DNA of 44,277 nt from Acidimicrobiales bacterium. GTDB taxonomy: Bacteria; Actinomycetota; Acidimicrobiia; Acidimicrobiales; UBA8190. The notes beneath the pieces are model-generated. The model searched no databases and was not told the origin of the DNA. It was given only the letters and a program-made list of their open reading frames with translations. This document shows positions 6,971-37,259 of this stretch, in pieces; the first letter of the stretch is position 1; every line of letters starts with the position of its first letter. Where the stretch lies: the NCBI GenBank assembly GCA_035622235.1, contig DASPVS010000517.1:1-44277 (forward strand), in the 5' to 3' direction. The position numbers and the translations under genes were made by a program.

Positions 6971-6971
6971 C

Positions 6972-22134: not shown

Positions 22135-22437
22135 GAGTTTGAGTGGCTTCGCCTACATCTTGGCTGAAAAGACCAAGCCAGAGGCATAGTTTGTGAGGCG
22201 AAATCTTGCGTTGGAGGCGTTTGGCTGATACCGGTCAGTTCTACGTCCGTAGAGCCGTTGCCCAAATGGCGCATCTCCGGCAATCCCGATCGCTTGGGAC
22301 CCAGCGCCCGCCATCGGTACCAGGCTGGGAGGATTCGAGCTCGTTTCAGCTCGTCCGTGTTCGTCGCTACAGACAAGGTTCGACCGAAATGGTATGCAGG
22401 TCAGACGTATAAGGGTCCTTCATATATGGAGGTCGAA

Positions 22438-22593
22438 ATGGCGGATTCCCGGAAGTTGCTGACCTATTTCGTTTCGAGCACGATCGCCGCTTCGGCGATC
22501 GTCGCCGTGACCACCGTATCAATCGCGTCTGCGGAGCCGCACGGCCAGCAATGTCGAGCGGTCGGCGCGTCCCAAAATCGGAGGCTCATCTGA
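22438..22593 (+). CDS. Small (51-aa) putative exported peptide
   Basis: ATG preceded by GGAGG. MADSRKLLTYFVSSTIAASAIVAVTTVSIASAEP looks like a signal peptide. Short, so weakly supported. Confidence 0.35.
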   Translation: MADSRKLLTYFVSSTIAASAIVAVTTVSIASAEPHGQQCRAVGASQNRRLI

Positions 22594-22717
22594 ACCACGT
22601 CGGGCAAATCCTTCGCGAACAATTGACCCAGAGTCCGCCGTCTCGGCGTTGTCTGCGTGCGACACCCATGGAACAGTGTCGACAAACCAACAACGGTGAT
22701 CAAAGGAGGTCGTTGTA

Positions 22718-23500
22718 ATGAGTCTTAATGTTCCTCGCTCTCGCTCGGTCCTGCTTCACTTGGTTGTGGCCGTCACAGCGCTGGCAGGCGCCGCTATCGC
22801 CATTAGCGGTAACGCCAACGCGTCCATTGCTGCCGCGAAGAACACAAGGCATACGGGTATCGCCCTTGTCGCTGAAGAATCGCAGTTTCTCGCTGGCTAC
22901 CAGATCGCCCCGACCGGGGGGTTGGCCAGCGCCAGCGTAACCTTCACTGTGCCCTCGTTCACATGCACGACTGGCGAGGACAACGCCCTCGCGGAGCAAT
23001 TTGACGGTGTCTACACTGACCAGGAACCGCTCTACGCTTTTGTCACCGAACAGTGTTACAGCTCATTTGGCGCCCGGTATATGTATGCGTTTGGGGCGGG
23101 CACGTGCTGTTACTTTTCAGAAACCGGAGTCGCAGCCGGCGATGTCGTTGTCACTTCGATATTCCAGTCCGGCAGCTCGACTTACGCCGAGATTCACGAT
23201 CTCACGAATGGTGCCTATTGGTTCGCGGATAGTGCGGGGAACTTAGGATTCACGACTGCCGATATCGGTAGCCAAGTTGCAAGCGAACAGGGTGGTGAAC
23301 CGGCGCCCAACTTCAAGAAGATCAAATTCTGGAACGCCACCGTGAACGGAGACTACCTGGGCTTCGACCAGCCGACTCAGTACGACGCGTACATCGGGAG
23401 TGATCTCGCCGCCGAGAGCAGTTCATTGACGACCAACGTGAATGGCTCAACGTTCACGGTTTCGAAGTACAACCCAAGGAGTTGTCGGGCCTGTGGCTGA
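22718..23500 (+). CDS. Secreted protein, possibly a divergent peptidase G1/A4-like (concanavalin-like) fold
   Basis: ATG preceded by AAGGAGG, followed by a signal peptide. FLAGYQI...VTFTVPSFTC resembles the NWAGY...TWTVP..C opening of G1 glutamic peptidases. The catalytic residues are not evident. Confidence 0.6.
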   Translation: MSLNVPRSRSVLLHLVVAVTALAGAAIAISGNANASIAAAKNTRHTGIALVAEESQFLAGYQIAPTGGLASASVTFTVPSFTCTTGEDNALAEQFDGVYTDQEPLYAFVTEQCYSSFGARYMYAFGAGTCCYFSETGVAAGDVVVTSIFQSGSSTYAEIHDLTNGAYWFADSAGNLGFTTADIGSQVASEQGGEPAPNFKKIKFWNATVNGDYLGFDQPTQYDAYIGSDLAAESSSLTTNVNGSTFTVSKYNPRSCRACG

Positions 23501-23580
23501 ATCAAAAGGGCCAAAGCAGGGCTGAGCCCTTCAACTACCCAGACCGGATGTGAAATCGGGCGACAGATGACCCGCGCGCA

Positions 23581-23697
23581 AGGTGCCGTGTGCGGTCCGA
23601 CCGCTCGGAGGCCAAACCGTCCTGTAATCACAGCTGTTCGCTGATCCGGTCGGTGTCACCCTGCACTGAGGACACCCGAAGTACCCCATCTCGGCCC
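23581..23697 (+). repeat. Island repeat, copy 1
   Basis: 5' AGGTGCCGTGTG; GATCC at 23643 (+60 from GTG); 3' end degenerate (CTCGGCC at 23690-23696). Internal hairpin GGTGTC...GACACC. Confidence 0.65.
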
Positions 23698-23747
23698 GTC
23701 CAGTGCGGTCCTACTGCCACAGGTGCCCGCGAGTTTGTCGTGACGCG

Positions 23748-24647
23748 CTAAGTGCCCTTACGAAGCTGCTCCCGCAGTTTCTCTGATGTGAAGCTGTTCG
23801 GTCGGGTTGTCTTGAGGAAGTCCACCAGGATCTCGACGAATCGGACGGGTTCCTCGACGTGGGGGTAGTGACCAACACCCTTCATGATCGCCAAGCGACT
23901 GTTTGGTATCAGCTCGTGAGCCCGGTAAGCGTGGATTAGGGGGATGATCCTGTCCCTGTCGCCCCAGACGATCAGAGTCGGCATGTTCGACGCCAGATAG
24001 AGGCGATCCATGGCGCTCACAGACTGGCCGCCCGGATCGATCACGGCACGCATCGTCCGGATGAACGCTTGGCGATTAGCGGGTTCGGTGAGTGAGGCGA
24101 AAGATCCCCAAATCTCTGTGGCGCGGGCATCGCGAATACCCAGGTTCCGGAGGAAGCCAACAATCGAGTCCCCCACGTCCCGCAGCGGCAGAGAGAAGAT
24201 CAACGGCAGGACGTACTCAGCGGCGGGCAGGGTAACGAGTCGGAGAATCCAGCTCACCTCACGCCCCAGGCCCCCCGCATCGACCAGGACCAGCCGCTCA
24301 CATCGCTCGGGAAACTGGTAGGCAAACTGCATCGCCACCCCGCCGCCGAAGGACTGGCCTATAACCGTGGCCCGTTCGATGTTGAGGACGTGTAGGAAGT
24401 CGCGCATCCCTGCTGCATGGTTGCCGAGCGAATAGTCCCCAAGGGGCTTGGCCGACCGGCCATGACCGAGGAAGTCGGGGGCCAGCACCGTGTAGTCGCG
24501 ACGAAGGAGTTCCATAGCGGGCACCCACGTCTGGGAACTGCCAGCGATCCCGTGCAGCAGAAGGAGGACGGGTCCCTTGCCCGCACGCCGATAGGCGACG
24601 TCATAACCATGGAGGGTGAGGCGCTCCACAGGGAACTCGTCGGTCAT
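23748..24647 (-). CDS. Alpha/beta hydrolase
   Basis: HGIAGSS oxyanion region and nucleophile elbow GQSFGG. Start taken at the ATG at 24647 (MTDEFPVERL). The ORF-track extension to 24806 is Arg-rich. Confidence 0.8.
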   Translation of the reverse strand: MTDEFPVERLTLHGYDVAYRRAGKGPVLLLLHGIAGSSQTWVPAMELLRRDYTVLAPDFLGHGRSAKPLGDYSLGNHAAGMRDFLHVLNIERATVIGQSFGGGVAMQFAYQFPERCERLVLVDAGGLGREVSWILRLVTLPAAEYVLPLIFSLPLRDVGDSIVGFLRNLGIRDARATEIWGSFASLTEPANRQAFIRTMRAVIDPGGQSVSAMDRLYLASNMPTLIVWGDRDRIIPLIHAYRAHELIPNSRLAIMKGVGHYPHVEEPVRFVEILVDFLKTTRPNSFTSEKLREQLRKGT

Positions 24648-24811
24648 GGTTGCCACAGACTCCACAGCCTCATCGTCCCGAGAGCCGGGCCGAATCCACA
24701 GGATATTTGCGTCAATTGTCGTGCGCCACGCCACGCCCGTCGTGGACCTCGACTTCATGTGGCCACAGATGGGGTGGCGCGGCGACTGGGAGGGTCGACG
24801 TACCATCCACT

Positions 24812-24928
24812 AAGTGCCGTGTGAGGACGGTCGCGAGTCCCAGAGAGCTTCACGGTATTCACATCTCCGAGTGATCCTGAGCGCTTCAGCTCTCCATGAG
24901 GTTCGAAGGCCCGTAGCACGAACCGGCA
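24812..24928 (+). repeat. Island repeat, copy 2 (subfamily A)
   Basis: AAGTGCCGTGTGAGGACGG...; GATCC at 24873 (+59); CATGAGG at +80; CCGGCA at 24923-24928. About 75% identical to copy 9 by eye. Confidence 0.8.
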
Positions 24929-24981
24929 AAGTTGAACGGGTTGGACTGATGTCTCAATTGTGGGCAAGTCCGAATGCGGGG

Positions 24982-25524
24982 CTAGTGATCACCGTGACCG
25001 CCGCAGCCATGACCCCCACCTCCGCACCCACCTCCAACCGAGCCCGTTCCCGCGATTTCACCGGTGATCATTCGATACTCACCCCGATTGGTTAGCCGCC
25101 CCTGTTTTGGAAGCTCCTTGGGAACGAGAGGCAGCAGGCTATGCCTGACGCAAGTGGCGCTGTCGGACGGCCGATGGACTTCGTTGCCACAACTGAGCAC
25201 CCAACGTTGGCCGTCGTCGAGGCCTAGTTCGTCGTCCACTTTGAAGAGGACAGGGAGTCGTGACGGGGAGCGCGGAGGGATCGCTTCGTCTCGGCATGCC
25301 AAAGCGAAGGTCAGGGCCATCGCTTCGCCATTGAGTTGCACCGCTTCATCGTTCGACATCGCTCTTTCGGGCCTGTGATGAAGGAATCTGCCGTAAGCGT
25401 GAGAGCAGAACGCGTGGTACTCGTCAGTGTCGAGGATGAACTCGTGCCAGAGATCGTCTACGGCCCGAGATGGCATGCCGAGGAGGTCTTGGGTGACAAG
25501 GTGGAGCCGAAGCCACTGACGCAA
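24982..25524 (-). CDS. Glycine-rich-domain (GRDP-like) protein with a Gly/Cys/His-rich C-terminal tail
   Basis: VDDLWHEFILDTDEYHAFC...FLHH core. C-terminal GTGSVGGGCGGGGHGCGGHGDH. The start is a TTG at 25524 (uncertain); the alternative is the ATG at 25476. Confidence 0.6.
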   Translation of the reverse strand: MRQWLRLHLVTQDLLGMPSRAVDDLWHEFILDTDEYHAFCSHAYGRFLHHRPERAMSNDEAVQLNGEAMALTFALACRDEAIPPRSPSRLPVLFKVDDELGLDDGQRWVLSCGNEVHRPSDSATCVRHSLLPLVPKELPKQGRLTNRGEYRMITGEIAGTGSVGGGCGGGGHGCGGHGDH

Positions 25525-25546
25525 ACCCTGTTTTGCTAAACCTATT

Positions 25547-25600
25547 GATGATCCCGTGATTCCACGTCGGCTTCGGAGTTCATCGCAATCGAGTTCGGCA
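25547..25600 (+). repeat. Island repeat, partial copy (3' half only)
   Basis: GATGATCCCGTGATTCC ... TCGGCA, with GATCC at 25550 and CGGCA ending at 25600 (spacing 45 vs 50-51 in full copies). The 5' half is not recognisable and abuts the start of the preceding CDS. Confidence 0.4.
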
Positions 25601-25713
25601 GCTCGTAACGAGCCAGGAACTCGGCCCTCTGAACCTTCGTTCTGAACCCTAGAACCACCTGTCCAGCCTATTTCGTGCTCGCGTCATAGACAGCCGGACA
25701 GGCCGTTATCGCG

Positions 25714-26103
25714 CTACGGCGGAGGTCCGAACCTCTGGAACCGCGCCACGAGTTCAGGATCTTCCTCCGAGTCGTACCACACACAACGTAAGGCAGTCTG
25801 GAATCTTGGATTGCGTCGAGCAGCAGCATCTATGGCATCGGCGAAGTCGGCTCCGTGCAGCCGAATGAGATCCTCCAGAGGACCGCAACCCAAGTAGCAC
25901 GCCGCTCGATCGTTGGGGGCAGCGTCAGCAAGCGCGACGATGAGCTCGATGATCCCGGCGTCCCCATCCAGTACCGCATCGTTGACTCGCTCCCACGCCC
26001 AGAACAAGCGGGCGGCATCCCGACGAACCGTGGGATCAGGATTCTCGTAGAGGGCCTGATAGCGCCAGTAGGCATTGACGAGCGCCGACGAGACAGAAGC
26101 CAC
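25714..26103 (-). CDS. Hypothetical all-alpha protein
   Basis: 129-aa ORF with coding-like composition (LGCGPLEDLIRLHGADFADAIDAAARRNPRFQTALRCVW). No confident family assignment. Confidence 0.55.
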   Translation of the reverse strand: MASVSSALVNAYWRYQALYENPDPTVRRDAARLFWAWERVNDAVLDGDAGIIELIVALADAAPNDRAACYLGCGPLEDLIRLHGADFADAIDAAARRNPRFQTALRCVWYDSEEDPELVARFQRFGPPP

Positions 26104-26161
26104 CTACCTGTTATCGGCTCTCGACCGGGCTCGTCTGTAATCAAGGTCCGGACTGCTCGAA

Positions 26162-26277
26162 AGGTGCCGTACCGGCTCGGCCTCGCAGTGGGGCACCCCG
26201 TACTGGATCACGCAGGGAGGGTCATACCGGGATGGCCTGGTCCTCGGAGCCTCCAGGCCCAGCGCTGATCAGGGCAC
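26162..26277 (+). repeat. Island repeat, copy 4 (divergent interior)
   Basis: AAGGTGCCGT at the 5' end, GGGCAC at the 3' end, at the family-typical length (about 114 nt). 7-bp hairpin GGCCTGG...CCAGGCC in the 3' arm. The central GATCC landmark is absent. Confidence 0.5.
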
Positions 26278-26325
26278 CCATCCAAGCGATTGAGGGGGTA
26301 GTTCTGGGGGTCTCTCCTCGATCGA

Positions 26326-26949
26326 GTGCGGCCTGAACGCCGCATCACTCCGACGAGGGATCATGGACCGGTGGTACTCATCCTCGGTGTCCTTGCAGTG
26401 GTGCTGACTGTGGCTCGCAGCTGGCCGCAATTCATCCGCATTGTCGTAAAACGCGACAACACCGGCGTCTCAGTTCTCACCTGGATGCTTGTCATGACCG
26501 CACATCTGGGATGGCTCATGTATGGAATTCTCGATCATGTCGTACTGCTCGTCATCGTGAACACCTTGTGTGCCTTGGGATGTGCTGCCATCCTCTTGCG
26601 CCTCCGGCCGCTGCAGTACTTGCTCGTACCTGTGGTCGGGATGCCCCTTGCATCGGTGGCCCTCTATGGGATCTCGAACGGAGCGCTGCTGGCTACTGTC
26701 ATCGGCTTATCGCTTGTCATGTTCGTTCCACAGGTCCTGACGGTGTTCCGAGCGCCCCATCACGGCGTGTCCCCGCTCACATGGGCACTGTCGGCGTTGT
26801 CGTCGATTACATGGATCTCATGGTCAATCATGGTGGGAAGACCTCTTCTTGCCGCTGCTCACTACGTCATGCTGCCGATAGCGCTCGCCATCTTGGGGAA
26901 GACCCTACGACGGAGCCCTGTTATAGCCTCCGAAGCCATCACGCCGTAA
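26326..26949 (+). CDS. PQ-loop repeat membrane protein (SWEET/PQ-loop-like)
   Basis: Two internal repeats, each with a PQ motif: SWPQFIRIVVKRDNTGVSVLTW and FVPQVLTVFRAPHHGVSPLTW. About 6-7 TM helices. Confidence 0.7.
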   Translation: MRPERRITPTRDHGPVVLILGVLAVVLTVARSWPQFIRIVVKRDNTGVSVLTWMLVMTAHLGWLMYGILDHVVLLVIVNTLCALGCAAILLRLRPLQYLLVPVVGMPLASVALYGISNGALLATVIGLSLVMFVPQVLTVFRAPHHGVSPLTWALSALSSITWISWSIMVGRPLLAAAHYVMLPIALAILGKTLRRSPVIASEAITP

Positions 26950-27088
26950 GCGGCGGGTTGGCCGTTTAGCGTGCAGGCGAGCTTTCTGGGTCTACCGACA
27001 CGGCATATTTGTAAGGGCGGGGCCATGCCCGACGGGCGCATGCCGCCGGATAATGCGGCCTTGAAAAACGAAGTGGACCGACCGGGAT

Positions 27089-27203
27089 ATGCCGTGGTCG
27101 CGCACTTCGGATTGATGTCGACCCGAGCTGTAACGACACGGCCGAACGATCCGGCGTGATTCGATGGTCTCCTGCCAATTCGGGACGGTACCCACCACCG
27201 GCA
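27089..27203 (+). repeat. Island repeat, copy 5 (subfamily B)
   Basis: ATGCCGTGGTCGCGCAC...; GATCC at 27148 (+59); CCGGCA at 27198-27203. The first ~50 nt differ from copy 6 at only 2 positions. Confidence 0.85.
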
Positions 27204-27352
27204 TTCTCGCTCGGTTATTCGCACACTTCTCGTCTTTTGGGGACTGTAACTATCGGTTCCCCGGTTCACCGACGAGCAGTAGCGGACTGCGCGAGCTGGT
27301 TGTACCGTTGTCCAAGGTTCTCCTGGCCTTTGGCGGGACAAAGGAGGCGGGT

Positions 27353-28732
27353 ATGGCGATATCGGGGCGCGTACGGGCTCACCATCTCAGGATGCCTTTT
27401 CGAGCGCTTCTCGTGTGCGTGGCTTTTGCTGGGGCCGCAGGGTTTACTGCGTTTCCGGCAACTGCTTCGGGAAGAGCTCAATCTTCATCTGGAGCTGTGT
27501 CTCTCCATGCGTCGCCAAATGTCATCGGAAGTCAACTCGCCGAGTTCTTTCCAGACCCCCTCGGGGCTGCCTTCTCCCAGTTCGGGTTCTCTGTCGCCAT
27601 CTCGGGCAATACGGCTCTGGTGGGCGACCCTTACTACCCAAATGGGGAGATTGGCGACAGTTGCGCCTGTACAGGCGAAGCGTTGGTCTTCACCAAGTCA
27701 CGCCGCGGATGGACTGAGACCGACCAACTGATCGGCTCCGATAGTGCCGCTGGCGACGATTTCGGGTTTTCTGTTGCGATTTCCGGCGGAATGCTGATAG
27801 TCGGGGCTCCGCACCACCAAGTAGGAACCAACGCGGCTCAGGGCGCGGCGTATGTGTATGTGAATACAAGCAGCGACGGCCTCTGGTCACAAGAGGCAGA
27901 GTTGACCTCCGACATCGGCGGTTTTGGCGGTACGGCAAACGAGGTTTACGGCGCGTCCGTCGCCATTTCGGGTACTTCGGCGATCGTTGGCGCCTTTGGT
28001 GCTTATGTGAGCGGGGTACAGGTTGGCGCCGCCTATGCCTACAATGAAAGCGGCGGGAACTGGCACCCAGACGGTCTTCTCTCGTCTTCAATCCCAGGAA
28101 CTTTCGGTGGATCCGTAGCGATCTCAGGAAAGACAGCGGTCGTGGGCGCACATACTCAACAAGTAGGTAGCAACGGCGGAGAGGGCGCGGCCTATGTTTA
28201 TACCGAGCATCAGGACAGTTGGGCACTCGCTGGGGAACTGACCCCGTCCGATGGTGGAGCGGAGGACAGTTTCGGTTATTCGGTGGCGGTTTCAGGAACA
28301 ACGGTGGTAGTGGGCTCGCCCGACCACCAAGTCGGAGGCAACATCAACCAGGGGTCGGCATATGTGTTCAGCAAATCCGGAAGCGCATGGCCCCAGACAG
28401 CCGAGCTAACAGCATCTCCTGACCCTGCCCCATATCAAAATTTTGGGTGGTCAGTCTCGGTTACCGGCAGTCCGCACCACAGCTATACCGTGCTCGTCTC
28501 GCGAGTCGACATCAAGATTGTATACGTCCCGCCGTGTTGCACCGGATACGTGTACACCGGGACTGGCAATACTTGGACCCCGGCAGCTGAGGTCGAGCCC
28601 TCTGACGCTCAGGCGGCCGATTCGTTCGGTGACTCAGTTTCCGTCTCGGGCACGACAGCCCTCATTGGTGCTGAATTACACCAAGTGGGTAGCGTCCGGG
28701 GCGAAGGAGCAGCCTACGTGTTCTCCTCTTAA
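27353..28732 (+). CDS. Secreted seven-bladed FG-GAP-like beta-propeller protein
   Basis: ATG preceded by AAGGAGG, followed by a signal peptide. Seven repeats of FG(x)SVA(I/V)SG(x)TA(x)VGA...G(A/S)AYV(F/Y). Confidence 0.85.
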   Translation: MAISGRVRAHHLRMPFRALLVCVAFAGAAGFTAFPATASGRAQSSSGAVSLHASPNVIGSQLAEFFPDPLGAAFSQFGFSVAISGNTALVGDPYYPNGEIGDSCACTGEALVFTKSRRGWTETDQLIGSDSAAGDDFGFSVAISGGMLIVGAPHHQVGTNAAQGAAYVYVNTSSDGLWSQEAELTSDIGGFGGTANEVYGASVAISGTSAIVGAFGAYVSGVQVGAAYAYNESGGNWHPDGLLSSSIPGTFGGSVAISGKTAVVGAHTQQVGSNGGEGAAYVYTEHQDSWALAGELTPSDGGAEDSFGYSVAVSGTTVVVGSPDHQVGGNINQGSAYVFSKSGSAWPQTAELTASPDPAPYQNFGWSVSVTGSPHHSYTVLVSRVDIKIVYVPPCCTGYVYTGTGNTWTPAAEVEPSDAQAADSFGDSVSVSGTTALIGAELHQVGSVRGEGAAYVFSS

Positions 28733-28884
28733 CCGATCTTCGTAAGAGGGGTCCGTGGCTCTTAACCCTCGGTCTGTCTTCCACATAGCATTGGCCGTCA
28801 ACATTTCGCACTCGGCTGCCTGCCGCGGTTACCGAACCATGGCAATTCCGAATCGGTCCTTGCACTTAAACGAGGGCGTACTGT

Positions 28885-29002
28885 AAGTGCCGTGGTCGCG
28901 CACCTCGGACTGATGTCGACCCGAGCTGTAACGACACGACCTCAGTGATCCAGCGTGATTTGACCGTCTCCCCCCGATACGGGACGGAACGCACCACCGG
29001 CA
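28885..29002 (+). repeat. Island repeat, copy 6 (subfamily B)
   Basis: AAGTGCCGTGGTCGCGCAC...; GATCC at 28947 (+60); 7-bp hairpin CCGTCTC...GGGACGG; CCGGCA at 28997-29002. Confidence 0.85.
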
Positions 29003-29152
29003 GGGATGCCGAGTGGTCTTAAAGCTCGCCGCCCGGCGCTTTTCGGTTCAGACTGGATGGTGCTCGGCATTTCCTCTACCCCTCGTCCCTTGTCAGCGAG
29101 CGTTGGGCGTTTCGCGGCAGACTTGGAGACGTGGTGCGGGAGCGGAGGATAG

Positions 29153-30520
29153 GTGCCGTTCAGGTCGCGTTTGGGTGCCATGACTGAGCCCCGGCCAGAA
29201 ACTCGATATGCGGCAGTCGGCGAGACCGACGTTGCCTACCAAGTCGTTGGAAATGGCCCGCCGGACCTTCTCTATTTCAGTCCGCTTGGAAACAACATTG
29301 ACCTGATCTGGGACTCACCGGATGCCGCCGAGTTCTTTAATGGGCTGCCATCGTTTTGCAGACTCATTGCGTTCGACCGTCGCGGGACAGGACTATCCGA
29401 CGGCGTAGCCAGAAATGCGATCCCAACCTGGGAGGACCTGAGCGAAGACGTGGGTGCGGTGCTCAACGCGGTCGGAGTGAGGCAAACTGCCATCTTGGCA
29501 ACTGCCGAAACTGGGCCGATGGCCCTCCTTTTCGCTGCCATGCACCCCGATCGGGTCAGCGCTCTCGCACTTGTGAACAGCTACGCGCGCCTCGTTGCGT
29601 CGGACGATTACCCGATCGGCGTCTCGTCGGAACTCTTGGACTCGTTTGTGGAAATGACTCGCACGAAGTGGGGGACTTGGGATTTCGCCCGGCTTGCGAT
29701 TCCCAGCCGGGCTGACGACGTTCAGACGCTCGACCACGTCGCCAAGTCGATGCGCTCGTCGGCGACTCCCCGCAATGCCGCAGCCCAATACAGCTACCTG
29801 ATCAACAATATCGATGCAAGACCGTTCCTGAAGCTCATACAAGTGCCTACTTTGGTGCTCCATATTCGTCATCACTTGCTATGCCCGATATCGCTCGGTC
29901 GTTACCTGGCCGAACACATCGAGGGAGCGAAGTTCGTCGAGCTGCCTGGATCAGACATCGGACTCGCAGGTGAGAACGTCCCGTATATCGCAGAGGAGCT
30001 CGCTGAGTTCTTGACGGGCGAGCGCCCCGTCGAGATCGACCGCGTCCTGACAACAGTCCTCTTCACAGACATCGTCGACTCGACCGGTCTGGCGGCCTCT
30101 TTTGGTGATCGGCGGTGGCGAACACTTCTCGATGCCCACGACCGGGCGGTCAGGGAGCAACTTCGGCGCTTTCGCGGTCGGGAGATCAAGACCACGGGGG
30201 ACGGCTTTCTCGCTTCGTTCGACGGCCCGGCACGGGCGATCCGCTGTGCCCGATCCATCATCGACGCCACTGCGGAACTGAGAATCGGGCTTCGTGCGGG
30301 TCTGCACACCGGAGAGTGCGAGATCCGAGGGGAGGATCTCGGTGGACTGGCCGTTCATATCGCTGCGCGTGTGGGTTCCCTGGCGGGCCCTTGTGAAGTT
30401 CTCGTCTCGGGGACAGTCAAGGACCTTGTCGTTGGATCGGGAGTCGACTTCACCGACAAAGGCGAGCACGAACTCAAGGGGGTCCCGGGTTCGTGGAAGT
30501 TATTCGCTCTGACGGGTTGA
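29153..30520 (+). CDS. Alpha/beta-hydrolase domain fused to a class III adenylate/guanylate cyclase domain (LipJ-like architecture)
   Basis: N-terminal abhydrolase-like half (IAFDRRGTGLSDG). C-terminal cyclase motifs VLFTDIVDSTG...KTTGDGFLASF...GLHTGECE...G..V..AAR. Start is the GTG at 29153 or the ATG at 29180. Confidence 0.85.
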   Translation: MPFRSRLGAMTEPRPETRYAAVGETDVAYQVVGNGPPDLLYFSPLGNNIDLIWDSPDAAEFFNGLPSFCRLIAFDRRGTGLSDGVARNAIPTWEDLSEDVGAVLNAVGVRQTAILATAETGPMALLFAAMHPDRVSALALVNSYARLVASDDYPIGVSSELLDSFVEMTRTKWGTWDFARLAIPSRADDVQTLDHVAKSMRSSATPRNAAAQYSYLINNIDARPFLKLIQVPTLVLHIRHHLLCPISLGRYLAEHIEGAKFVELPGSDIGLAGENVPYIAEELAEFLTGERPVEIDRVLTTVLFTDIVDSTGLAASFGDRRWRTLLDAHDRAVREQLRRFRGREIKTTGDGFLASFDGPARAIRCARSIIDATAELRIGLRAGLHTGECEIRGEDLGGLAVHIAARVGSLAGPCEVLVSGTVKDLVVGSGVDFTDKGEHELKGVPGSWKLFALTG

Positions 30521-30533
30521 CAGAACACGCGAT

Positions 30534-30654
30534 AAGTGCCGGAGTGCGCTATTCGGCCGCTCGGCGTGACCGTCCCATATTCGCGGCGTGGGATGATCCG
30601 GTGCGGTTTCTCCTCTGAGGGCAGGCGCGTGGAGCATTACCGGATCCGGCACTT
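30534..30654 (+). repeat. Island repeat, copy 7 (subfamily C), with perfect 10-bp terminal inverted repeats
   Basis: AAGTGCCGGA (30534-30543) and TCCGGCACTT (30645-30654). GATCC at 30595 (+59). Begins 13 nt after the cyclase stop codon. Confidence 0.85.
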
Positions 30655-30730
30655 CCGGATGGGTCCAATGCGGTCCGGGGGCAGGGGTGCCCCTATCAGA
30701 GGGCTAAGAATTCAGATCACAATTCTGAGC

Positions 30731-31381
30731 GTGCAATCTAGGTGGGGAAAAAGAAGATCGAGACTTCTGATATTGGGCCTCCCCCCACTCACACTCGCCT
30801 TTTTACTGTTTGGTTGTGGAAGTAACGCCAGCCCATCGAGTGGGGCGACGGCGAAAGCGAGCACGTCGTCGTCTACGACCGCATCGACGGCGAGCAGGTC
30901 AATGGCACTGAGCGGTCCCGTCCTAGGTCCAGATGGGCTCGGCGTGGTTGATGTCGGAACTACCCAAGCTGGCGCAGTTGCCACCGTGGTCCGGTACCTG
31001 GGCTCACCCACGAAGACCACGCTGGGCGTCTGCAAAAACACCACTGAGGTGCAATGGAAAGATCTTTCCCTCGAGTTCACGTCGGGGACGCTAACTGGGT
31101 ACCGCTACCTGCGAAATGGCCTGCCCGTTGTTGGCACGTCGGAGCATTCGACTGGCTCCGGTCACCCACTTCTGAAGACGTCCGCTGGAGCAACGCTAGG
31201 TATGACACTGAGTCAGGTGAGGAGTCTTTACCCACCTGAGGATTTCAGCTACGAGCAAGGTGGCGCCATAGTGGTTCCGGGTACCCCGATTGGGAATCGG
31301 CTGTTCCTTGGATTCTTCGCAAGTGATCCGTCGACCCCGCTCTCCGAGATCAAGGGTGGAAGTCCCTGCGGTGATTTCTGA
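30731..31381 (+). CDS. Putative lipoprotein
   Basis: Positively charged n-region, hydrophobic core and lipobox LLFGC (WGKRRSRLLILGLPPLTLAFLLFGCGS), followed by a Ser/Thr/Ala-rich linker. The start (GTG at 30731) is uncertain. Confidence 0.65.
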   Translation: MQSRWGKRRSRLLILGLPPLTLAFLLFGCGSNASPSSGATAKASTSSSTTASTASRSMALSGPVLGPDGLGVVDVGTTQAGAVATVVRYLGSPTKTTLGVCKNTTEVQWKDLSLEFTSGTLTGYRYLRNGLPVVGTSEHSTGSGHPLLKTSAGATLGMTLSQVRSLYPPEDFSYEQGGAIVVPGTPIGNRLFLGFFASDPSTPLSEIKGGSPCGDF

Positions 31382-31410
31382 GTATTGAGCCCACGCGGGT
31401 ACTGCCGAGT

Positions 31411-31440
31411 GCGCGCTTTCGGATGTTGAACGAACCCGGG
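31411..31440 (+). repeat. Island repeat, partial copy (5' module only)
   Basis: TACTGCCGAGTGCGCGCTTTCGG resembles the 5' end of copy 7 (AAGTGCCGGAGTGCGCTATTCGG). The downstream sequence forms other hairpins (AACAAC...GTTGTT, CTCTGG...CCAGAG) and lacks the GATCC and CCGGCA landmarks. Confidence 0.35.
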
Positions 31441-31573
31441 CGCTAACAACAGGGGCGAGCGGTCTTGCGTTGTTGGCCGTCTCTGGCCGACCAGAGGGTG
31501 GTCTCCACATGCAGTTACGGACGGTGTTCCAGAGCCCTCGGGCGCGACCGAGGTCATTGCCCAGGTGGCTCAT

Positions 31574-31981
31574 TCAGTTGGGACCGCTCCCCCGGAGCTG
31601 TCGGTCCGCTGCTTCGGTGGCGAGCCGAGATGCGAGTTGTCGAGAGATCCCGAGCACTCGTCCGATCTCACTTATAGAAGCGCCTTCTTCTTTTCCTAGC
31701 GCGAACAGTGCCAGGCGGAGATTATGACGGGCAGCTTCGAAGTCCTCGATGGCTTCGGTCACCTGTCGACGTTGGCTTGGAATAGCTGTCCCTTGAGAGG
31801 CTGCGATCGCAAGCTCCCCGTTTTCGAGACGCCTTGCTATGACAACCATGGTCTTCTCGTAGCGCCGAAGGCGTTCGCGCAGGAGCGCCGAAGACTCGTT
31901 GAGTTCGGTAATCCGGCGCACCAACTGTCTTCTCTTCCTCGACATAGATCCCCTTCTGAAACGGCTGTTCGCACCAGTCAA
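31574..31981 (-). CDS. Small DNA-binding protein: N-terminal coiled coil plus C-terminal HTH (sigma-70 region-4-like)
   Basis: C-terminal ASISEIGRVLGISRQLASRL is a typical HTH. Basic N-terminus. Alternative start at 31945 (MSRKRRQ). Confidence 0.6.
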   Translation of the reverse strand: MTGANSRFRRGSMSRKRRQLVRRITELNESSALLRERLRRYEKTMVVIARRLENGELAIAASQGTAIPSQRRQVTEAIEDFEAARHNLRLALFALGKEEGASISEIGRVLGISRQLASRLATEAADRQLRGSGPN

Positions 31982-32161
31982 CGGTAGAAGGTCGCAGATG
32001 CGTCAGGACGCGGAACGATCTCCGGCACAGAAGTGGGGGGTTGCCGTGATCGTTCCGCCGATTCCCGCCGTCATTTGGTTTCGAAACAGATGCAGTGGAC
32101 AGGGGGGACCGATCACCACAGCAGTTCGAGAGCGGGGCTCGCACAGACAACCAAGCACATG

Positions 32162-32178
32162 GTTGACGTCCTGTCAAC
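32162..32178. promoter_or_regulatory. Inverted repeat GTTGAC-N5-GTCAAC
   Basis: Perfect 6-bp arms in the 340-nt ORF-poor gap upstream of the HTH gene. Candidate operator. Confidence 0.3.
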
Positions 32179-32323
32179 AGGTGTGGACATCTCAAGACCG
32201 GTCCGTCCAGTAGTCTGGACGCTGACGGGTTTCGGTTGCGAGCTGTCATGATTTCGATCGCTTCACACCTGGGTTGAGGAGATGGCGGATCTCGTAACGG
32301 CCGCGGCACCCTGACCGCACTTG

Positions 32324-32440
32324 AGGTGCCGTGTGAGAACGGTCGCGAATCGCGGAGACCTGCACGGTATTTACACCCCCGAGTGATGCAGAGCGCTCCA
32401 GCTCCCCATGAGGTTCGCATGCCCGCAGCATGAACCGGCA
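32324..32440 (+). repeat. Island repeat, copy 9 (subfamily A)
   Basis: AGGTGCCGTGTGAGAACGG...; GATGC (variant of GATCC) at 32385 (+59); CATGAGG; CCGGCA at 32435-32440. Confidence 0.8.
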
Positions 32441-32678
32441 AAGGAGTCCGGTCGCTGACGGGTGGCGACGAAGGGCCGGTGTCGATGCGCTGCCGGATCA
32501 ATCCATCACCAGGCAGCCCGCGAGGCGCTTCCTCTCTGCGCGTCGGCCGACTTTGGAGTCGCGTCTCCGTTCTCAACTCCTCATGATCCACTCGACGCCC
32601 TGGCGCTGCTTTGGCTTCTTCGAGCAGACTCGTGCCGTGGATGTCGGCGAGATCCACCGGGGCATCCGGAGGTGATAT

Positions 32679-33065
32679 ATGCGCAAGTGGATGCTGTTGA
32701 CCGGAAGTGCCGTCTTGATGGTGACCCTCGCCTCGTCGGGCACTGCGGGAGCCGCCCCGGCGACAGCGGTGCCAAAGCACGTGAAGCCGGGCAGCGTGTG
32801 GACGCTTGAGGTAAGCGGGGGCTACTGCGAGGTGCAGACGTTTCTCGTCGATCACCTGTTCACGGCCAACGTGAACGACGACGCCGGTACGTACACCGGT
32901 GGCGGGAAGAAGATCACCGAGACCTGGACGTCGGGCGGCTTCGCCGGCACGACGGACTCGGGCACATACTTGAAGTCGGCGGGCTACTACCTGGTCGAGC
33001 TCTTCTTGGACGGATCGGAGGTGAACACGGGCGCCCTCGTGCCGGGCGCAGTCTCGCGTTGCTGA
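32679..33065 (+). CDS. Small secreted protein, unknown function
   Basis: ATG preceded by GGAGGTG. Signal peptide MRKWMLLTGSAVLMVTLASSGTAGAAPA. Confidence 0.7.
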   Translation: MRKWMLLTGSAVLMVTLASSGTAGAAPATAVPKHVKPGSVWTLEVSGGYCEVQTFLVDHLFTANVNDDAGTYTGGGKKITETWTSGGFAGTTDSGTYLKSAGYYLVELFLDGSEVNTGALVPGAVSRC

Positions 33066-33113
33066 ACGAGTGAAGCAGCGGTAGCCGTCCGGCACGTTGA
33101 TGTACAGAACAGG

Positions 33114-33146
33114 GAGACGCCCGGCCCACGGTTGGCCGGGCGTCTT
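33114..33146 (+). terminator. Strong GC-rich hairpin, probable intrinsic terminator
   Basis: Perfect 11-bp stem GACGCCCGGCC / GGCCGGGCGTC (33116-33126 and 33134-33144), loop CACGGTT, then TT. It lies 50 nt after the stop at 33065. The U-tract is short, as is common in high-GC genomes. Confidence 0.6.
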
Positions 33147-33288
33147 CGGCGCTGGCGAGCATGCTGGCCGTGCAAGCCACGACACTCCGCGCTCCACCGT
33201 GTAGATATGTTGTGTCAGGGCGGTCAACCCGCTCGGGACACCGGACCCGTATTCGCGGCCCCTGACCGATCCCGGGACCGCACTACTC

Positions 33289-33402
33289 GTGCCGTGCTGC
33301 GCCATCAGGTTCCCGTAGGACCCGTCCCATAACAACGCCGCTAGGCGATCCCGCCGGGATCCGTCGTCATGAGGTTGTACTTAGCAAGCGCGCCCACCGG
33401 CA
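33289..33402 (+). repeat. Island repeat, copy 10
   Basis: GTGCCGTGCTGCG...; GATCC at 33347 (+58); CATGAGG at +79; CCGGCA at 33397-33402. Confidence 0.75.
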
Positions 33403-33576
33403 GACTCGTACGGGTCGGGGTTCGAGAAGGCAGCCTCGAGCGTCGTCGTTACCCGAGCGCTCCCAGGCCGTCGGCCCCTTCTGAGATCCTCTTTCCAAGA
33501 ATTTCGTGGTGGGCAGGCAACCTTTCTGACAGGCAGAGGGGTTTAGAAGGGTGATGGCCATGGGAGAGGACCGCTG

Positions 33577-34167
33577 ATGCCGCCAGTCCGGCGTGGCCAG
33601 AGGCGTGCGGCTTTCGAGCAGTTCGTGACGGAGTCGACCGGCGGTCTGCTCCGAACGGCTTACCTCGTCACCGGCGATGCCGGTCACACAGAGGACCTCG
33701 TTCAAGAGACTCTCATCAAGGTCGCCCGCCGCTGGTCCCGGGTCGACCGAATGGAGAACCCAGAGGCCTACGCACGCAAGATCCTCGTCAACCTGGCGGT
33801 GGACGGCTCCAATCGCCGCTCACGTCATAGGGGTGAGCTTGCGGCGCAGCAACGACCCGACGGGCTTGCTCAGTGCGACCCGCATGCCTCGTGGGGTGTC
33901 CCCGCGCTGGTTGAGGAACGAATGGAGCTGGTTCGAGCCCTGGCTGAGCTGCCACCGCGGCAGCGAGCCGTGTTGGTGCTCCGGTTCTTCCACGACCTCA
34001 GCGAATCGGAGGTCGCATCCACGCTTGGGTGCTCGATCGGGACGGTGAAGAGCACGACATCTCGGGCCCTCGCAAGGATGCGTTCGTTGCTTCCAAATCA
34101 ACGCTCGATGTCGAGCATTGGATTCGAGGTCCTCGCATACACAGAGCGAAAGGCTGGACAAGGATGA
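33577..34167 (+). CDS. ECF (group 4) sigma-70 factor
   Basis: Region 2 (DLVQETLIKVARRW) and region 4 HTH (LSESEVASTLGCSIGTVKSTTSRALARMR). Confidence 0.9.
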   Translation: MPPVRRGQRRAAFEQFVTESTGGLLRTAYLVTGDAGHTEDLVQETLIKVARRWSRVDRMENPEAYARKILVNLAVDGSNRRSRHRGELAAQQRPDGLAQCDPHASWGVPALVEERMELVRALAELPPRQRAVLVLRFFHDLSESEVASTLGCSIGTVKSTTSRALARMRSLLPNQRSMSSIGFEVLAYTERKAGQG

Positions 34168-35063
34168 CCGACCAACTTGAGTCTGAACTTCGGGAGGCGT
34201 TCGCACGTCGCGCCGCCGAGGTCCCCGCCGATGCAGTGGAGCGCCTCCGCCGGGTTGACTATCGGCCACACACGAGGCGTCGTTGGCCATTGACGATCGG
34301 CGCTTTTGGGGCAGCCTCTGGGACGGCCGCAGCGGTGTCTGTCTTGGTACTAGGAGGGTCCCCGGTTGCCTTCGCCGGGTGGACGGCCACGCCCATTTTG
34401 ACCAGCGCCGACCAGAATGGGGCGGCGCCAGGCGACTGTCAGACCCAGCTCGCGACTGCGCCCGGTGGCTCGAGTCCGGGGAGCTGGAGCGAAGTCACCA
34501 CCGACGCGCGCGGTCCATACACCATGACGGTCTACGAGAACGGCAGCAACAGCCTGGCGAGTTGCTTTACGGGGCCGTCGTTCACGACGTTGCAAGTGGA
34601 AACCCTCAACCCGGCATCGGGCGGGGCCAACACCGTATCCGGCGAGATGGCGGTATCGGCGATAGGACAGCGGGCTCCGACGCCGCAGGTCACCAACGCG
34701 GCGGTCCGGCTGTTCTCGGGCGGAGATGTCGAACAGCTCTTGGTAAGCCATCTCTCGCAATCCGCGAACGGCACGTACACGCTGGTCGAGGGCCGCCTCG
34801 AACCGAGTGTCACGGCCGTCACTTTGGTACTCAGCGATGGCCAACAGGTCACCGCCACCGTAGGAAATGGGTGGGCCGTTGCGTGGTGGCCGGGCAATCA
34901 GGACGTGGCATCCGCTCAAACAACCTCAGCGAGTGGCACCGCCATCGTGCCCCTCAAGGTCGCAAACTTCGCTGCGCCTCCACGTCCGGCCGGCAGTACT
35001 GCTGTCCTGACCCACGGGTCTCCCGATGGTCCTTCCCTCAATCAGACGTCCAGCGCGCCCTAG
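34164..35063 (+). CDS. Putative anti-sigma factor (single-pass membrane protein)
   Basis: ATGA start/stop overlap with the sigma gene. Short cytoplasmic N-terminus, one TM helix (WPLTIGAFGAASGTAAAVSVLVLGG) and an extracytoplasmic domain. Confidence 0.7.
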   Translation: MTDQLESELREAFARRAAEVPADAVERLRRVDYRPHTRRRWPLTIGAFGAASGTAAAVSVLVLGGSPVAFAGWTATPILTSADQNGAAPGDCQTQLATAPGGSSPGSWSEVTTDARGPYTMTVYENGSNSLASCFTGPSFTTLQVETLNPASGGANTVSGEMAVSAIGQRAPTPQVTNAAVRLFSGGDVEQLLVSHLSQSANGTYTLVEGRLEPSVTAVTLVLSDGQQVTATVGNGWAVAWWPGNQDVASAQTTSASGTAIVPLKVANFAAPPRPAGSTAVLTHGSPDGPSLNQTSSAP

Positions 35064-35181
35064 CTGCCGGTGCTAGTCGTCCTCGCCAGGGGCCCACGAC
35101 GGGAGGTGACATCCGAAAACTGGTTGATCCCGATCGAATCGTGTATCCAACTGGACCGAGCGCAACGTGCGACGGCATCCG

Positions 35182-35278
35182 GAAGTGCCCGATTCGCGCA
35201 CCCGGTAACGACGCCGTCGAGTGATCCAGCGCGATTGCTCCAACAGAAGGTTGGTTCGGACCGGGGCGCAGACCCGGC
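35182..35278 (+). repeat. Island repeat, copy 11 (short form)
   Basis: AAGTGCCCG...; GATCC at 35222 (only +38, so the 5' half is about 21 nt shorter); CCGGCA at 35273-35278 (+51 from GATCC). The centre, GAGTGATCCAGCGCGATTG, matches subfamily B. Confidence 0.7.
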
Positions 35279-35491
35279 AGTCCTGAGCGTGATCGCCGCG
35301 CCCTTTCACGCGGCCTTACCAGACCCTTTCCGCGCGCAATCAAGATTCATTCTCGCTTTCCTGTTGCGTCACAAGCAGTTCACTTCCAGGAACTATTGAC
35401 GGCTGCATCCAACGGAGCGACTGGCGGGAGCGCATGTTGCACCACGACGCATCGATCTGAGCCTCGCAGCCGCCGTAGAAGGAGGTCAAGC

Positions 35492-36121
35492 ATGAATCGG
35501 CCGCGAATGGGCACATGGACAAAGGGCATCGTGGTGGGGATCATCTTTGGTGGTCTTGTGGCGACTGGAATCAGTTGGGCATCGATACCAGACTCGAACG
35601 GAGTCATTCACGGTTGCTACAAGACCAGAGGCACGACCCACAGCTTGAAGGTGATCGACTCTGCCGTCACCTCCAGTTGCCCGAGCGGATATACAAGCCT
35701 CGATTGGAGTGAAACCGGACCACAAGGCCCTCAAGGCCCGAGCCTTCTTCAAGGTGGTTACGACAACAACGGGACTACTGTCTCTAGCGCTCTACAGACC
35801 GTCGACACCATGACGATCACAAACACGGGCTACTACGAACTCTCGGCGAAGCTGGATGTCGACCTAGAAACTGGCCTTGGCGATGTCTCCTGCCAACTTC
35901 TCTCGCCGACCGGTGATTCAGATACTGGCGTCTATGCGGGCAACTCGAGCGGCAGCCTCGCGTACGGAACTATCAGCCTGTTGGTAACTCCTAGCGACGA
36001 GATCACAGCTGGACAGAGCGTGACATTGAGCTGCATCGAGCCATACGGCCCTGCCGCAGGCATCTTCGATATCAAGATCGCTGCGCTAGAGGTTGGATCG
36101 GTGAGCAACTCGCAGTTGTGA
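35492..36121 (+). CDS. Secreted or membrane-anchored protein with a short collagen-like GPQGPQGPS segment
   Basis: ATG preceded by AAGGAGG. N-terminal TM/signal segment (GIVVGIIFGGLVATGISWA). Confidence 0.7.
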   Translation: MNRPRMGTWTKGIVVGIIFGGLVATGISWASIPDSNGVIHGCYKTRGTTHSLKVIDSAVTSSCPSGYTSLDWSETGPQGPQGPSLLQGGYDNNGTTVSSALQTVDTMTITNTGYYELSAKLDVDLETGLGDVSCQLLSPTGDSDTGVYAGNSSGSLAYGTISLLVTPSDEITAGQSVTLSCIEPYGPAAGIFDIKIAALEVGSVSNSQL

Positions 36122-36237
36122 GTCATTCTTTTGCTGTTCAGCAGCTGAGGACTTTGCGTCCGATCGCAACAAGCCTGCACTCTGACGACTCGCAGGTGTC
36201 GTCCTGATGTGTGGGTTGTATTGACCGGGCGATATAT

Positions 36238-36327
36238 GTGCCGGTGAGTCGGACGGTTCCACCCAACCCGGCCATCCGTCGCCGATTCGATCGCTATCGC
36301 CACCGGTCACCCCAATTACCGGAGCAG
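36238..36327 (+). repeat. Island repeat, copy 12 (3' end degenerate)
   Basis: GTGCCGGTGAGTCGGACGG resembles the subfamily A 5' end. GATCG at +51. The 3' end (ACCGGAGCA) is degenerate and about 11 nt before the next CDS start. Confidence 0.45.
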
Positions 36328-36337
36328 ACTGGTTCCC

Positions 36338-37039
36338 GTGGCCACTGCCCGCATAAATGGGATCGAGTTGTACTACGAGCTGCACGGCAGTGGACCAGCA
36401 GTCGCCGTCATACCCGGTATGGGGACCGATACTCGACTGTTCTCCCCGATCGCTATGACCCTCGCCGAGCGGCATCAGGTGCTGGTGTTCGATCCGCGGG
36501 GAGCCGGTCGTAGCGACAAACCTGACGTTCCCTATTCGGCCGAGGAGATGGCGGACGACACCGCTGGTCTTTTCGATGTGGTGGGAATGCAAGCGCCCAC
36601 CGTGGTTGGCTACTCGATGGGGGGACGGATCGCTCTGACCCTCGCCCTGCGGCATCCAACCAGAGTTCGAGGCTTGCTCCTCGCCTCCACTTCGGCGAGG
36701 ACGCCGCCTGTCCGTCTTTTCAGCAGGCGATGGTTCATGATGGACGTCCTTGGTCGGGTTCGGCTCCCGAGGTCGATCGATCCTCAGCCGCGCTACGCCC
36801 AGCAAAGGCAGCGTGAGGCCTTCCGTACCTTCGACTGTTCGGATCGACTGGCTCAGATCAGGGTCCCGACGACGGTGATCCATGGCCGTGACGATCACGT
36901 CACTCCGTACCCCCTCGCTTTGGAGCTACAGCGTGGTATCCCCGACGCTCGATTAGTCACTGTCGACGGTGGTCATTTCGCCCTGATCACGAAGCAACGA
37001 CGCCGCTTGATAGAGGCGGCCGAAGGGCTGGCGGGCTGA
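36338..37039 (+). CDS. Alpha/beta hydrolase
   Basis: GTG start. GMGTD...FDPRGAGRSD, and nucleophile elbow GYSMGG. Confidence 0.85.
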   Translation: MATARINGIELYYELHGSGPAVAVIPGMGTDTRLFSPIAMTLAERHQVLVFDPRGAGRSDKPDVPYSAEEMADDTAGLFDVVGMQAPTVVGYSMGGRIALTLALRHPTRVRGLLLASTSARTPPVRLFSRRWFMMDVLGRVRLPRSIDPQPRYAQQRQREAFRTFDCSDRLAQIRVPTTVIHGRDDHVTPYPLALELQRGIPDARLVTVDGGHFALITKQRRRLIEAAEGLAG

Positions 37040-37051
37040 GCCGATTCCACC

Positions 37052-37150
37052 AGTATCCGCCGTTCTCGCCCGCGCGCTGGATGTGTAGAAATGCGCTACC
37101 GGTCCCCCTGGGCGAGAGAACTGAGTCCCATGAGGCGACTGCGCCGCCTG
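37052..37150 (+). repeat. Possible degenerate terminal copy of the island repeat
   Basis: AGTATCCGCCG at the 5' end and CATGAGG at about +77, as in copies 2, 9 and 10. No clear GATCC or CCGGCA. Weak. Confidence 0.25.
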
Positions 37151-37156
37151 AGGCTA

Positions 37157-37227
37157 GGAGAACAAGTTTTTATTCTGGTCACGCTCGGCTGAGTTCTGAA
37201 TGTTGACCAGAAAGTAGACCGTTCTCC
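37157..37227. terminator. Nested inverted repeats between convergent genes, candidate bidirectional terminator at the island edge
   Basis: GGAGAAC (37157-37163) pairs with GTTCTCC (37221-37227). CTGGTCA (37175-37181) pairs with TGACCAG (37204-37210). Contains the AT-rich stretch AAGTTTTTATT. Confidence 0.4.
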
Positions 37228-37259
37228 TGATGACAAACGAGCCAGTTGCAGAGACCAAC

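Follow-up and report, generated by a model that had tools for sequence, protein, structure and literature searches.

The insertion and its repeat family

The window analysed here is the whole of contig DASPVS010000517.1 (44,277 nt), from an uncultured member of Acidimicrobiia (Actinomycetota), and it contains, between two convergent genes encoding a TetR protein and an amidohydrolase, an array of miscellaneous genes interspersed with copies of a repeat of about 125 bp, referred to below as R (Table 1). Statements on recombinases, tRNAs and repeats in the window cover that contig. The flanking amidohydrolase has homologues of 70-88% identity, labelled Acidimicrobiia or Acidimicrobiales by their sources. 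In three relatives (L093, L094 and L076), whose amidohydrolase proteins are 88%, 84% and 79% identical to that of the window, the amidohydrolase and TetR genes are convergent and directly adjacent (overlapping, 42 nt and 60 nt apart), and the surrounding gene order is kept. In the window, 15.1 kb lie between the intact stop codons of the same two genes, and both C-termini are intact. The adjacency of the flanking genes in the three relatives shows that the whole array (22135-37259) has been inserted in the window. The GC content of the first 10 kb of the insertion (22-32 kb) is 0.57-0.60, that of the flanks 0.62-0.65. R has no copy in 42 kb from two relatives, nor in the other 32 kb of the window when searched with a profile of 24 copies, and the window holds no tRNA.

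In the window, the R family has nine members, eight full and one partial, which all lie on the + strand between 23.5 and 35.3 kb. Self-comparison, as suggested in an initial annotation of this DNA, returned two long pairs (24814-24931 with 32326-32443 at 86% identity, and 27090-27203 with 28888-29002 at 82-94%), and an alignment of the eight full copies gives a fixed series of landmarks: (A)AGTGCCG(TG), then GTAAYNAC 41 nt on, GAGYGATCC a further 17-18 nt on, and finally CCGGCA, another 50-51 nt on. Used as a search pattern, these landmarks matched five copies in the window and none in 100 shuffles, and leave-one-out profile searches re-found each copy or subfamily from the rest (E 2.6e-7 to 4e-3), with no match on the - strand of the window and none outside 23.5-35.3 kb. 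The eight landmark-bearing copies and their common orientation, first noticed by hand alignment, are thus confirmed by both the leave-one-out and the 24-copy profile searches, except that the CCGGCA landmark is missing from the copy at 23581. The more degenerate copies claimed by hand fared less well: the one at 31411 was recovered (as 31403-31519, E about 1e-3), those at 25547, 36238 and 37052 were undetectable even when the search was confined to intergenic sequence, and the one at 26162, said to have matching termini, is at best a degenerate 5' fragment (E 0.03) in which block 3 is inverted.

Over its length of about 125 bp, R consists of a one-sided part of about 110 bp carrying the blocks A.GTGCCG, GACC, CGGTAWYNRC, GAGYGATCC and GCAC, followed by CCGGCA and by 14 nt that fit the looser consensus N3-YCG-N-GCGGT. 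The 31 unique copies have GTGCCG and CCGGCA as their invariant ends (CCGGCA nearly so, in 28 of the 31), and AAC or GTT are absent from them.

What is conserved in R is primary sequence. DNA folds of the window copies, on both strands, are no more stable than dinucleotide shuffles (z -1.35 to +0.73), and when 19 unique copies were folded the variable regions gave mean z values of +0.12 and -0.08 and the whole element -0.54. RNAalifold, run on 8 and on 23 copies and on both strands, returned a single consensus pairing, the invariant 5-bp TGCCG/CGGCA of the termini. No Rfam family matched at the gathering score in the whole window, or at E<=1 in 22000-37500, and no R copy overlaps a terminator-like site. 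The conserved features of R are sequence blocks and not pairings, which implies a site that is read as double-stranded DNA. The complementarity of the termini noted in the initial annotation holds, reaching 10 bp in R5, while the structured interior with hairpins particular to each subfamily that it described does not, and folding of both strands yields no attC-like structure.

Table 1. Coordinates of the insertion, its flanking genes, the R copies and the cargo genes (window positions)
Feature	Position	Strand	Remarks
TetR gene, left flank	21466-22134	+	convergent with amidohydrolase
Whole strain-specific insertion (array and cargo)	22135-37259		between the convergent TetR and amidohydrolase genes
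Possible degenerate 3'-half site, left insertion edge	22223-22297	+	weak; 3'-half profile E 1.7e-3 intergenic-only, E 0.043 whole window
Peptidase A4-like protein	22718-23500	+	weak match, Pfam PF01828, E 1.4e-4, just under cut-off
R1	23581-23705	+	3' end degenerate, without CCGGCA; leave-one-out E 1.1e-4; 24-copy profile E 8e-12
Alpha/beta hydrolase	23748-24806	-	cargo
R2	24812-24942	+	GTGCCG..CCGGCA 24814-24928 plus 14-nt 3' extension; leave-one-out, landmark pattern, 24-copy profile
Three-gene interval	24982-26949		180-aa protein of unassigned function (-), DUF6869, PQ-loop protein
DUF6869 protein	25714-26103	-	cargo, R2-R3 interval
Possible degenerate 5' copy fragment	26160-26205	+	not counted as a copy; intergenic-only E 0.03; block-3-like motif inverted
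PQ-loop protein	26326-26949	+	cargo, R2-R3 interval
R3	27087-27217	+	self-comparison, leave-one-out, landmark pattern, 24-copy profile
FG-GAP repeat protein	27164-28732	+	true start probably downstream of R3
R4	28885-29016	+	subfamily of R3; self-comparison, leave-one-out, landmark pattern, 24-copy profile
Alpha/beta hydrolase fused to adenylate/guanylate cyclase domain	29153-30520	+	cargo
R5	30534-30665	+	10-bp terminal complementarity AAGTGCCGGA/TCCGGCACTT; leave-one-out, landmark pattern, 24-copy profile
Open reading frame (ORF), no family match	30536-31381	+	cargo
Partial/diverged R copy	31403-31519	+	leave-one-out E 5e-4 to 1e-2; 24-copy profile E 2e-3
Small helix-turn-helix (HTH) protein	31574-31981	-	cargo
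R6	32324-32454	+	86% identical to R2; self-comparison, leave-one-out, landmark pattern, 24-copy profile
128-aa ORF, no assigned function	32679-33065	+	cargo
R7	33287-33416	+	leave-one-out, alignment, 24-copy profile
Extracytoplasmic function (ECF) sigma factor and overlapping downstream ORF	33577-35063	+	sigma factor 33577-34167; ORF 34164-35063
R8	35183-35293	+	internal deletion of about 21 nt in 5' half; leave-one-out E 2.6e-7; 24-copy profile
Two genes past last supported repeat	35396-37039	+	241-aa protein without assigned function; alpha/beta hydrolase 36338-37039
Amidohydrolase gene, right flank	37260-38588	-	convergent with TetR

Arrays elsewhere and the tandem-recombinase element at the repeat boundary

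Searching the representative genomes of 185,579 species with the landmark pattern gave one true match, in a metagenome-assembled genome of Acidimicrobiales (L019), the other 32 loci (L001-L033 except L019), from many phyla, being chance matches; in the JGI metagenomes, the same pattern identified about 20 true contigs. With the profile built from 24 unique copies, same-direction R arrays were found on about ten other Acidimicrobiia metagenome contigs, with a spacing of 0.7-3 kb and in differing chromosomal places. The longest are a contig reassembled from L036, L060 and L050 (Ga0307374_10005149, eight copies on the - strand over about 14 kb) and L062 (four copies on the + strand in 6.8 kb), followed by L066 and L061 with three copies each, and L073, L037, L059 and L096 with two each. 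By hand count, 30 of 32 adjacent R pairs are co-oriented, and L096 adds one more. Solitary copies (one in 8 kb of L019; L046 and L048) and truncated copies also occur, and R was not found in viral contigs or in the plasmids of PLSDB. Given the single true hit among the 185,579 species genomes and the lack of copies in the 42 kb from relatives, R is not a dispersed high-copy repeat. Five contigs from sister samples (L040, L057, L036, L060 and L050) proved to be one and the same sequence, hence there is no population variation to read among them.

R has sharp ends. Copies on L066 (120-238) and L074 (1811-1925) share 96% identity with R2, the flanks being dissimilar at both the DNA and the protein level, and two copies of the Ga0307374 array are 98% identical to each other with unrelated flanks. 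In such near-identical pairs (96-99%), which stand in unrelated contexts, identity runs from (A)AGTGCCG to 0-3 nt past CCGGCA and then stops; the 14 nt beyond differ between the two members of a pair, yet still fit the family consensus, and no target-site duplication is visible at the flanks. A break in identity just past CCGGCA is the pattern expected if R were a site with its crossover point at the 3' end. One segment shared by two contigs was examined as a candidate cassette and rejected, as the 87%-identical stretch of L061 and L073 is a single coding sequence, from start to stop codon, with differing flanks and repeats.

A mobile element was found at exactly this boundary. L074, a contig from the sample that also gave L066, has a pair of overlapping genes for tyrosine recombinases, and 31 nt past the second lies an R2-like copy on the opposite strand. 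Homologues of the second recombinase are numerous, carry the source name Acidimicrobiales and sit mostly on contigs of 1.5-4.5 kb, as usually happens when a multi-copy element interrupts assembly. Longer contigs show a pair of proteins of 343-349 aa and 406-410 aa, encoded in an element of about 2.5 kb bounded by the terminal inverted repeat TATGNGGGTSATC(C). Both recombinases are Xer-like, falling below the XerC/XerD cut-offs and scoring 33-71 bits where the IntI cut-off (TIGR02249) is 265 bits. Tandem pairs on Rhodococcus plasmids have a long recombinase to part of which the second protein is 52-56% identical, and the element also has the terminal TATGTGGGTGATC in common with them; this places it, as judged from its sequence, among the Tn554-related tandem elements of actinobacteria in Van Houdt et al. 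2012 (PMC3414803). An assignment to the BIM or RIT elements was considered and rejected, since the former have one recombinase and an SMC-like protein and the latter a recombinase trio (PMC3414803), and the pair fits neither definition. One of the Rhodococcus pairs, from a cultured organism, on the R. erythropolis PR4 plasmid pREL1 (L095; NC_007491, 2273-5226), consists of 341-aa and 611-aa recombinases with terminal inverted repeat TATGTGGGTGATC, annotated merely as 'tyrosine-type recombinase/integrase', and appears to be inserted within a gene that may encode an IS3-type transposase.

This element meets R at one defined position. Its right end abuts ...CCGGCA|T-TATG of a full R on L074 (E 3e-25), ...CCTGCA|T-TATG of an R-like copy within the two-copy array of L096 (E 1.5e-4), and ...CCGGCA|T-TATG of weaker R-like sequences on L078 and on L084/L088 (E about 5e-3); L091 has the same CCGGCA|T-TATG junction beside a non-significant R-like sequence. 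At every R or R-like junction the recombinase genes are antisense to R, so that R has, in independent contexts, one defined position and one orientation relative to the element, as an attachment site of a Tn554-related element would. On L078, the sequence across the element from R (TGACGCAGTACCGGAC) is similar to the extension usually found 3' of CCGGCA. In addition, the outermost 9 nt of the inverted repeat of the element (GGGTGATCC) agree in 8 of 9 positions with GAGYGATCC, the most conserved internal block of R; by our own rough estimate, the chance of such a match to a given 9-mer somewhere in R is about 0.03. IS110-family transposase genes were seen in the same surroundings: on L078 (596-2431) they adjoin a repeat copy split by an 80-nt insertion, and in several samples (L081, 5189-6205; L082-L086) they are found some 500 nt outside its right end. 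IS110 elements may represent a second family targeting R sites.

The reading that we favour, with moderate confidence, is that R may be a double-stranded site-specific recombination or attachment site, and the locus a head-to-tail array of recombinase-less cargo modules joined at R; this is the 'recombination site for a different recombinase' that the initial annotation had listed among its alternatives, and the Tn554-related tandem element lying exactly at the 3' boundary of R is what favours it. Exchange would take place at CCGGCA or 0-3 nt past it, with N3-YCG-N-GCGGT as a semi-conserved right arm, and the one-sided sequence of about 110 bp would carry further, putative protein-binding blocks. 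An R on a circular module would recombine with a chromosomal R, inserting the module and leaving two R sites in the same direction, and recombination between two direct R sites would remove it again. The candidate enzyme is the overlapping Xer-like pair (about 345 and 406-410 aa) of the 2.5-kb Tn554-related element, which is not in the window. Under such a scheme the orientation of R would be uniform because the site is polar, the window would be free of recombinases because the enzyme acts in trans, and genes and repeats would be jointly absent from relatives because the array was assembled module by module. The repeat family, its orientation and sharp ends, the inserted state of the array and the junctions with the recombinase element are observed directly; we infer that single modules move, and that the tandem recombinases are the enzymes moving them.

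More tentatively, and with somewhat less conviction than for R as a recombination site, Acidimicrobiia may possess a previously unrecognised gene-capture platform analogous to the integron, in which R, with its crossover at CCGGCA, and a mobile Tn554-related Xer-like pair acting in trans would build up, shuffle and exchange one-gene modules in chromosomal arrays. No description of R or of such arrays in Acidimicrobiia was found in the literature searched. Integrons are the textbook case of capturing genes one at a time, and the locus suggests an independent solution in Actinobacteria, with another site and another recombinase family. If so, modular gene capture would have evolved more than once, the uncharacterised Tn554-related tandem recombinases, widespread on actinobacterial plasmids, would gain a function, and the search model for R would offer a simple way to mine the accessory genes of abundant uncultured Acidimicrobiia of soil and peat.

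How does such a system compare with those already known? Tn554 prefers a specific site, and like the Tn554 family with its att554 site, the element described here has two adjacent, overlapping tyrosine recombinase genes and a favoured target. It differs from other actinobacterial Tn554-related elements in its second recombinase (406-410 aa versus 611-828 aa), and its preferred site is a 125-bp repeat present in multiple copies with cargo between them, as opposed to a single chromosomal att site; to our knowledge, no such arrays have been described for Tn554 relatives. The cer/psi-type Xer sites combine an end-placed crossover core with more than 100 bp of one-sided accessory sequence, and a similar architecture would, by analogy only, explain the fixed block spacing and the directionality of R, in which, unlike cer/psi, neither accessory-protein sites nor a dif-like core could be recognised. 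The pdif sites of Acinetobacter plasmids, which are used by XerC/XerD, are 28-bp cores in alternating orientation. Their small one- or two-gene modules, bounded by sites for a Xer-type pair, resemble the units proposed here, as do the Xer-like candidate enzymes, whereas R is about 125 bp long, uniformly oriented and chromosomal, shows no recognisable 28-bp XerC-spacer-XerD core, and would be served by enzymes of a mobile element in place of host XerCD. The pdif modules are shuffled between replicons (PMC6449649, PMC13141974).

Evidence against, and competing explanations

Several observations weigh against R as the joint of mobile modules. The 44-kb window encodes no recombinase of any kind and holds no copy of the inverted repeat of the tandem-recombinase element. 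The same gene-plus-R unit was never found in two different arrays, and neither excision products (circles) nor presence/absence variants of a single unit were seen. Where cargo genes have homologues in other arrays, their orientation is not kept: the hydrolase-cyclase fusion (29153-30520) has a homologue between two repeats of L062 (5152-6648) in the opposite orientation, and the L057/L036 homologue of the HTH protein is also oppositely oriented relative to the repeats. A dyad at the 3' end of R (ACCGG..CCGGT), considered as a sign that both arms co-vary, was rejected, as a permutation of R bodies against the extensions of other copies gave p = 0.26. Two 3'-half copies, on L063 and L041, are exceptions to co-orientation. 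Finally, R could be merely a preferred target of the recombinase element, because the element is also inserted at non-R targets (L079/L097, the L081 type and Rhodococcus pREL1).

The half-copies just mentioned span GATCC to the extension (L063 1993-2070, - strand; L041 1091-1169, + strand), are inverted with respect to full copies and bracket 1.2-3 kb. Such half-sites are the outermost members of the L040/L050 arrays, and possibly of the array in the window (22223-22297). Within one array, a 140-nt segment is duplicated at 98% identity (L050 1029-1168 and L060 5016-5155), its end lies about 23 nt within a truncated copy, and it could be a scar of recombination.

The alternative that survives best, which we still regard as unlikely, takes R for a selfish or structural intergenic repeat, akin to repetitive extragenic palindromes and bacterial interspersed mosaic elements (REP/BIME) or to miniature inverted-repeat transposable elements (MITE), that spread in a hypervariable island and was used by mobile elements as a landing pad, the intervening genes never having been mobilised via R. 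Insertion sequences (IS) that target REP sequences are known, and the users of such a pad would include the tandem-recombinase transposon, IS110 and a group II intron. Being short and intergenic, with two sharp ends and short terminal inverted repeats (TGCCG/CGGCA), R has much in common with these repeats, and its near-identical copies in unrelated contexts, its solitary and truncated copies, the cargo genes in either orientation and the non-R insertions of the recombinase element all fit. However, REP/BIME sequences are dispersed in high copy number and in two orientations, and form stable imperfect palindromes, whereas R is strongly clustered, co-oriented and confined to accessory arrays, and forms no stable hairpin of the REP type. 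A MITE should share its ends with a transposable element, and no transposase with ends matching those of R was found: the ends of the tandem-recombinase element (TATGNGGGTSATC) differ from them, terminal complementarity is limited to TGCCG/CGGCA, and there is no visible target-site duplication. The joint absence of genes and repeats from three relatives also argues against a repeat that spread by itself.

It is improbable that the array arose by successive integrations of small islands through a conventional arm-binding integrase, with R as the regenerated att site, as in the tandem accretion of tycheposons or tRNA-linked islands. One array does begin close to suitable machinery: Ga0307374_10005149 starts near a 441-aa P4-type integrase and a tRNA-Ser(GCT), from which a vapBC pair and a group II intron separate it. 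Yet such an integrase is nearby in only 1 of about 12 arrays, the array of the window lies between two protein-coding genes without tRNA or integrase, R is dissimilar to this tRNA (the matches on L050 are the three known R copies only), and one-gene units lacking an integrase are unlike typical accreted islands. In detail, L050 carries at 7290-9411 the vapBC-like pair and the P4-type tyrosine integrase gene beside tRNA-Ser(GCT), followed by miaB and cinA; this array starts inside a tRNA-linked island.

Still less probable is that R, placed after genes, works in cis as an RNA or in transcription (as a terminator, insulator, 3' untranslated region element or small RNA). For most R copies the 3' end of a gene is indeed 14-220 nt away, and their orientation agrees with 8 of the 12 cargo genes; against this, there is no Rfam match at E<=1, no fold beyond shuffles, no consensus structure and no terminator overlap, and R keeps its orientation even where the neighbouring gene is on the - strand, while homologous genes of different arrays do not share one orientation with respect to it.

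The least probable reading of all is an integron proper, in which the locus would be a cassette array with highly divergent attC sites and an IntI encoded elsewhere, i.e. a cluster of attC sites lacking integrases (CALIN). The likeness in layout, which the initial annotation had stressed, is real and recurs on about ten contigs: co-oriented sites (about 120 nt in R, about 60-140 nt in integrons) lie between mostly single, unrelated and often unannotated genes (in the window, nine copies and six of eight intervals), exchange is proposed for the 3' end of the site, within arrays the site subfamilies resemble one another more than the genes do, the miscellaneous cargo of related arrays includes toxin-antitoxin pairs, arrays may stand without a nearby integrase, and mobile elements are drawn to the sites. 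What fails is the self-pairing interior by which an attC site is recognised. The ends of R (GTGCCG/CCGGCA) are not RYYYAAC/GTTRRRY and contain no AAC/GTT boxes, no imperfect hairpin forms on the bottom or the top strand, one gene in three is encoded on the opposite strand, and neither the window nor the related loci encode an IntI, the recombinases found in the latter reaching 71 bits against the cut-off of 265; the absence of an integrase and the non-attC ends had both been noted correctly from the start. Complete integrons have, moreover, not been found in Actinobacteria (Cury et al. 2016, PMC4889954), in agreement with the initial annotation.

The group II intron of L050, which lies beside an R site, is complete (5296-7175; RF01999 at 5300-5417, RF00029 at 7092-7167, and a reverse transcriptase/maturase ORF at 5860-7080). 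It is located 64 nt from a 3'-half R copy, in the opposite orientation to the array, and recalls the group IIC-attC introns of integrons. Its insertion as the cause of a split R copy was considered and rejected, as in-silico removal over a grid of boundaries never rebuilds a full copy.

Cargo genes and the left edge

Counting supported copies, six of the eight intervals hold a single gene or one operon (the sigma/anti-sigma pair), so the arrangement of exactly one gene or such a pair in each of 12 units, as first described, applies to most of the array and fails for the R2-R3 interval, which holds three genes, and for the stretch past the last copy, R8, which holds two. About a third of the cargo genes sit on the strand opposite to R. 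The hydrolase-cyclase fusion is also found as an ordinary chromosomal gene in one of the empty-site relatives (L076, 1-464), without repeats nearby.

At the left junction of the insertion, directly past the TetR stop codon, lies a short hairpin, CTTGGCTGAAAAGACCAAG (22150-22200), which has no counterpart in the short intergenic regions of the relatives. Further inside, the internal direct repeats at 27580-28723 (39-45 nt, 62-78% identical, spacing 156-522 nt) are unrelated to R and correspond to the coding repeats of the FG-GAP protein.

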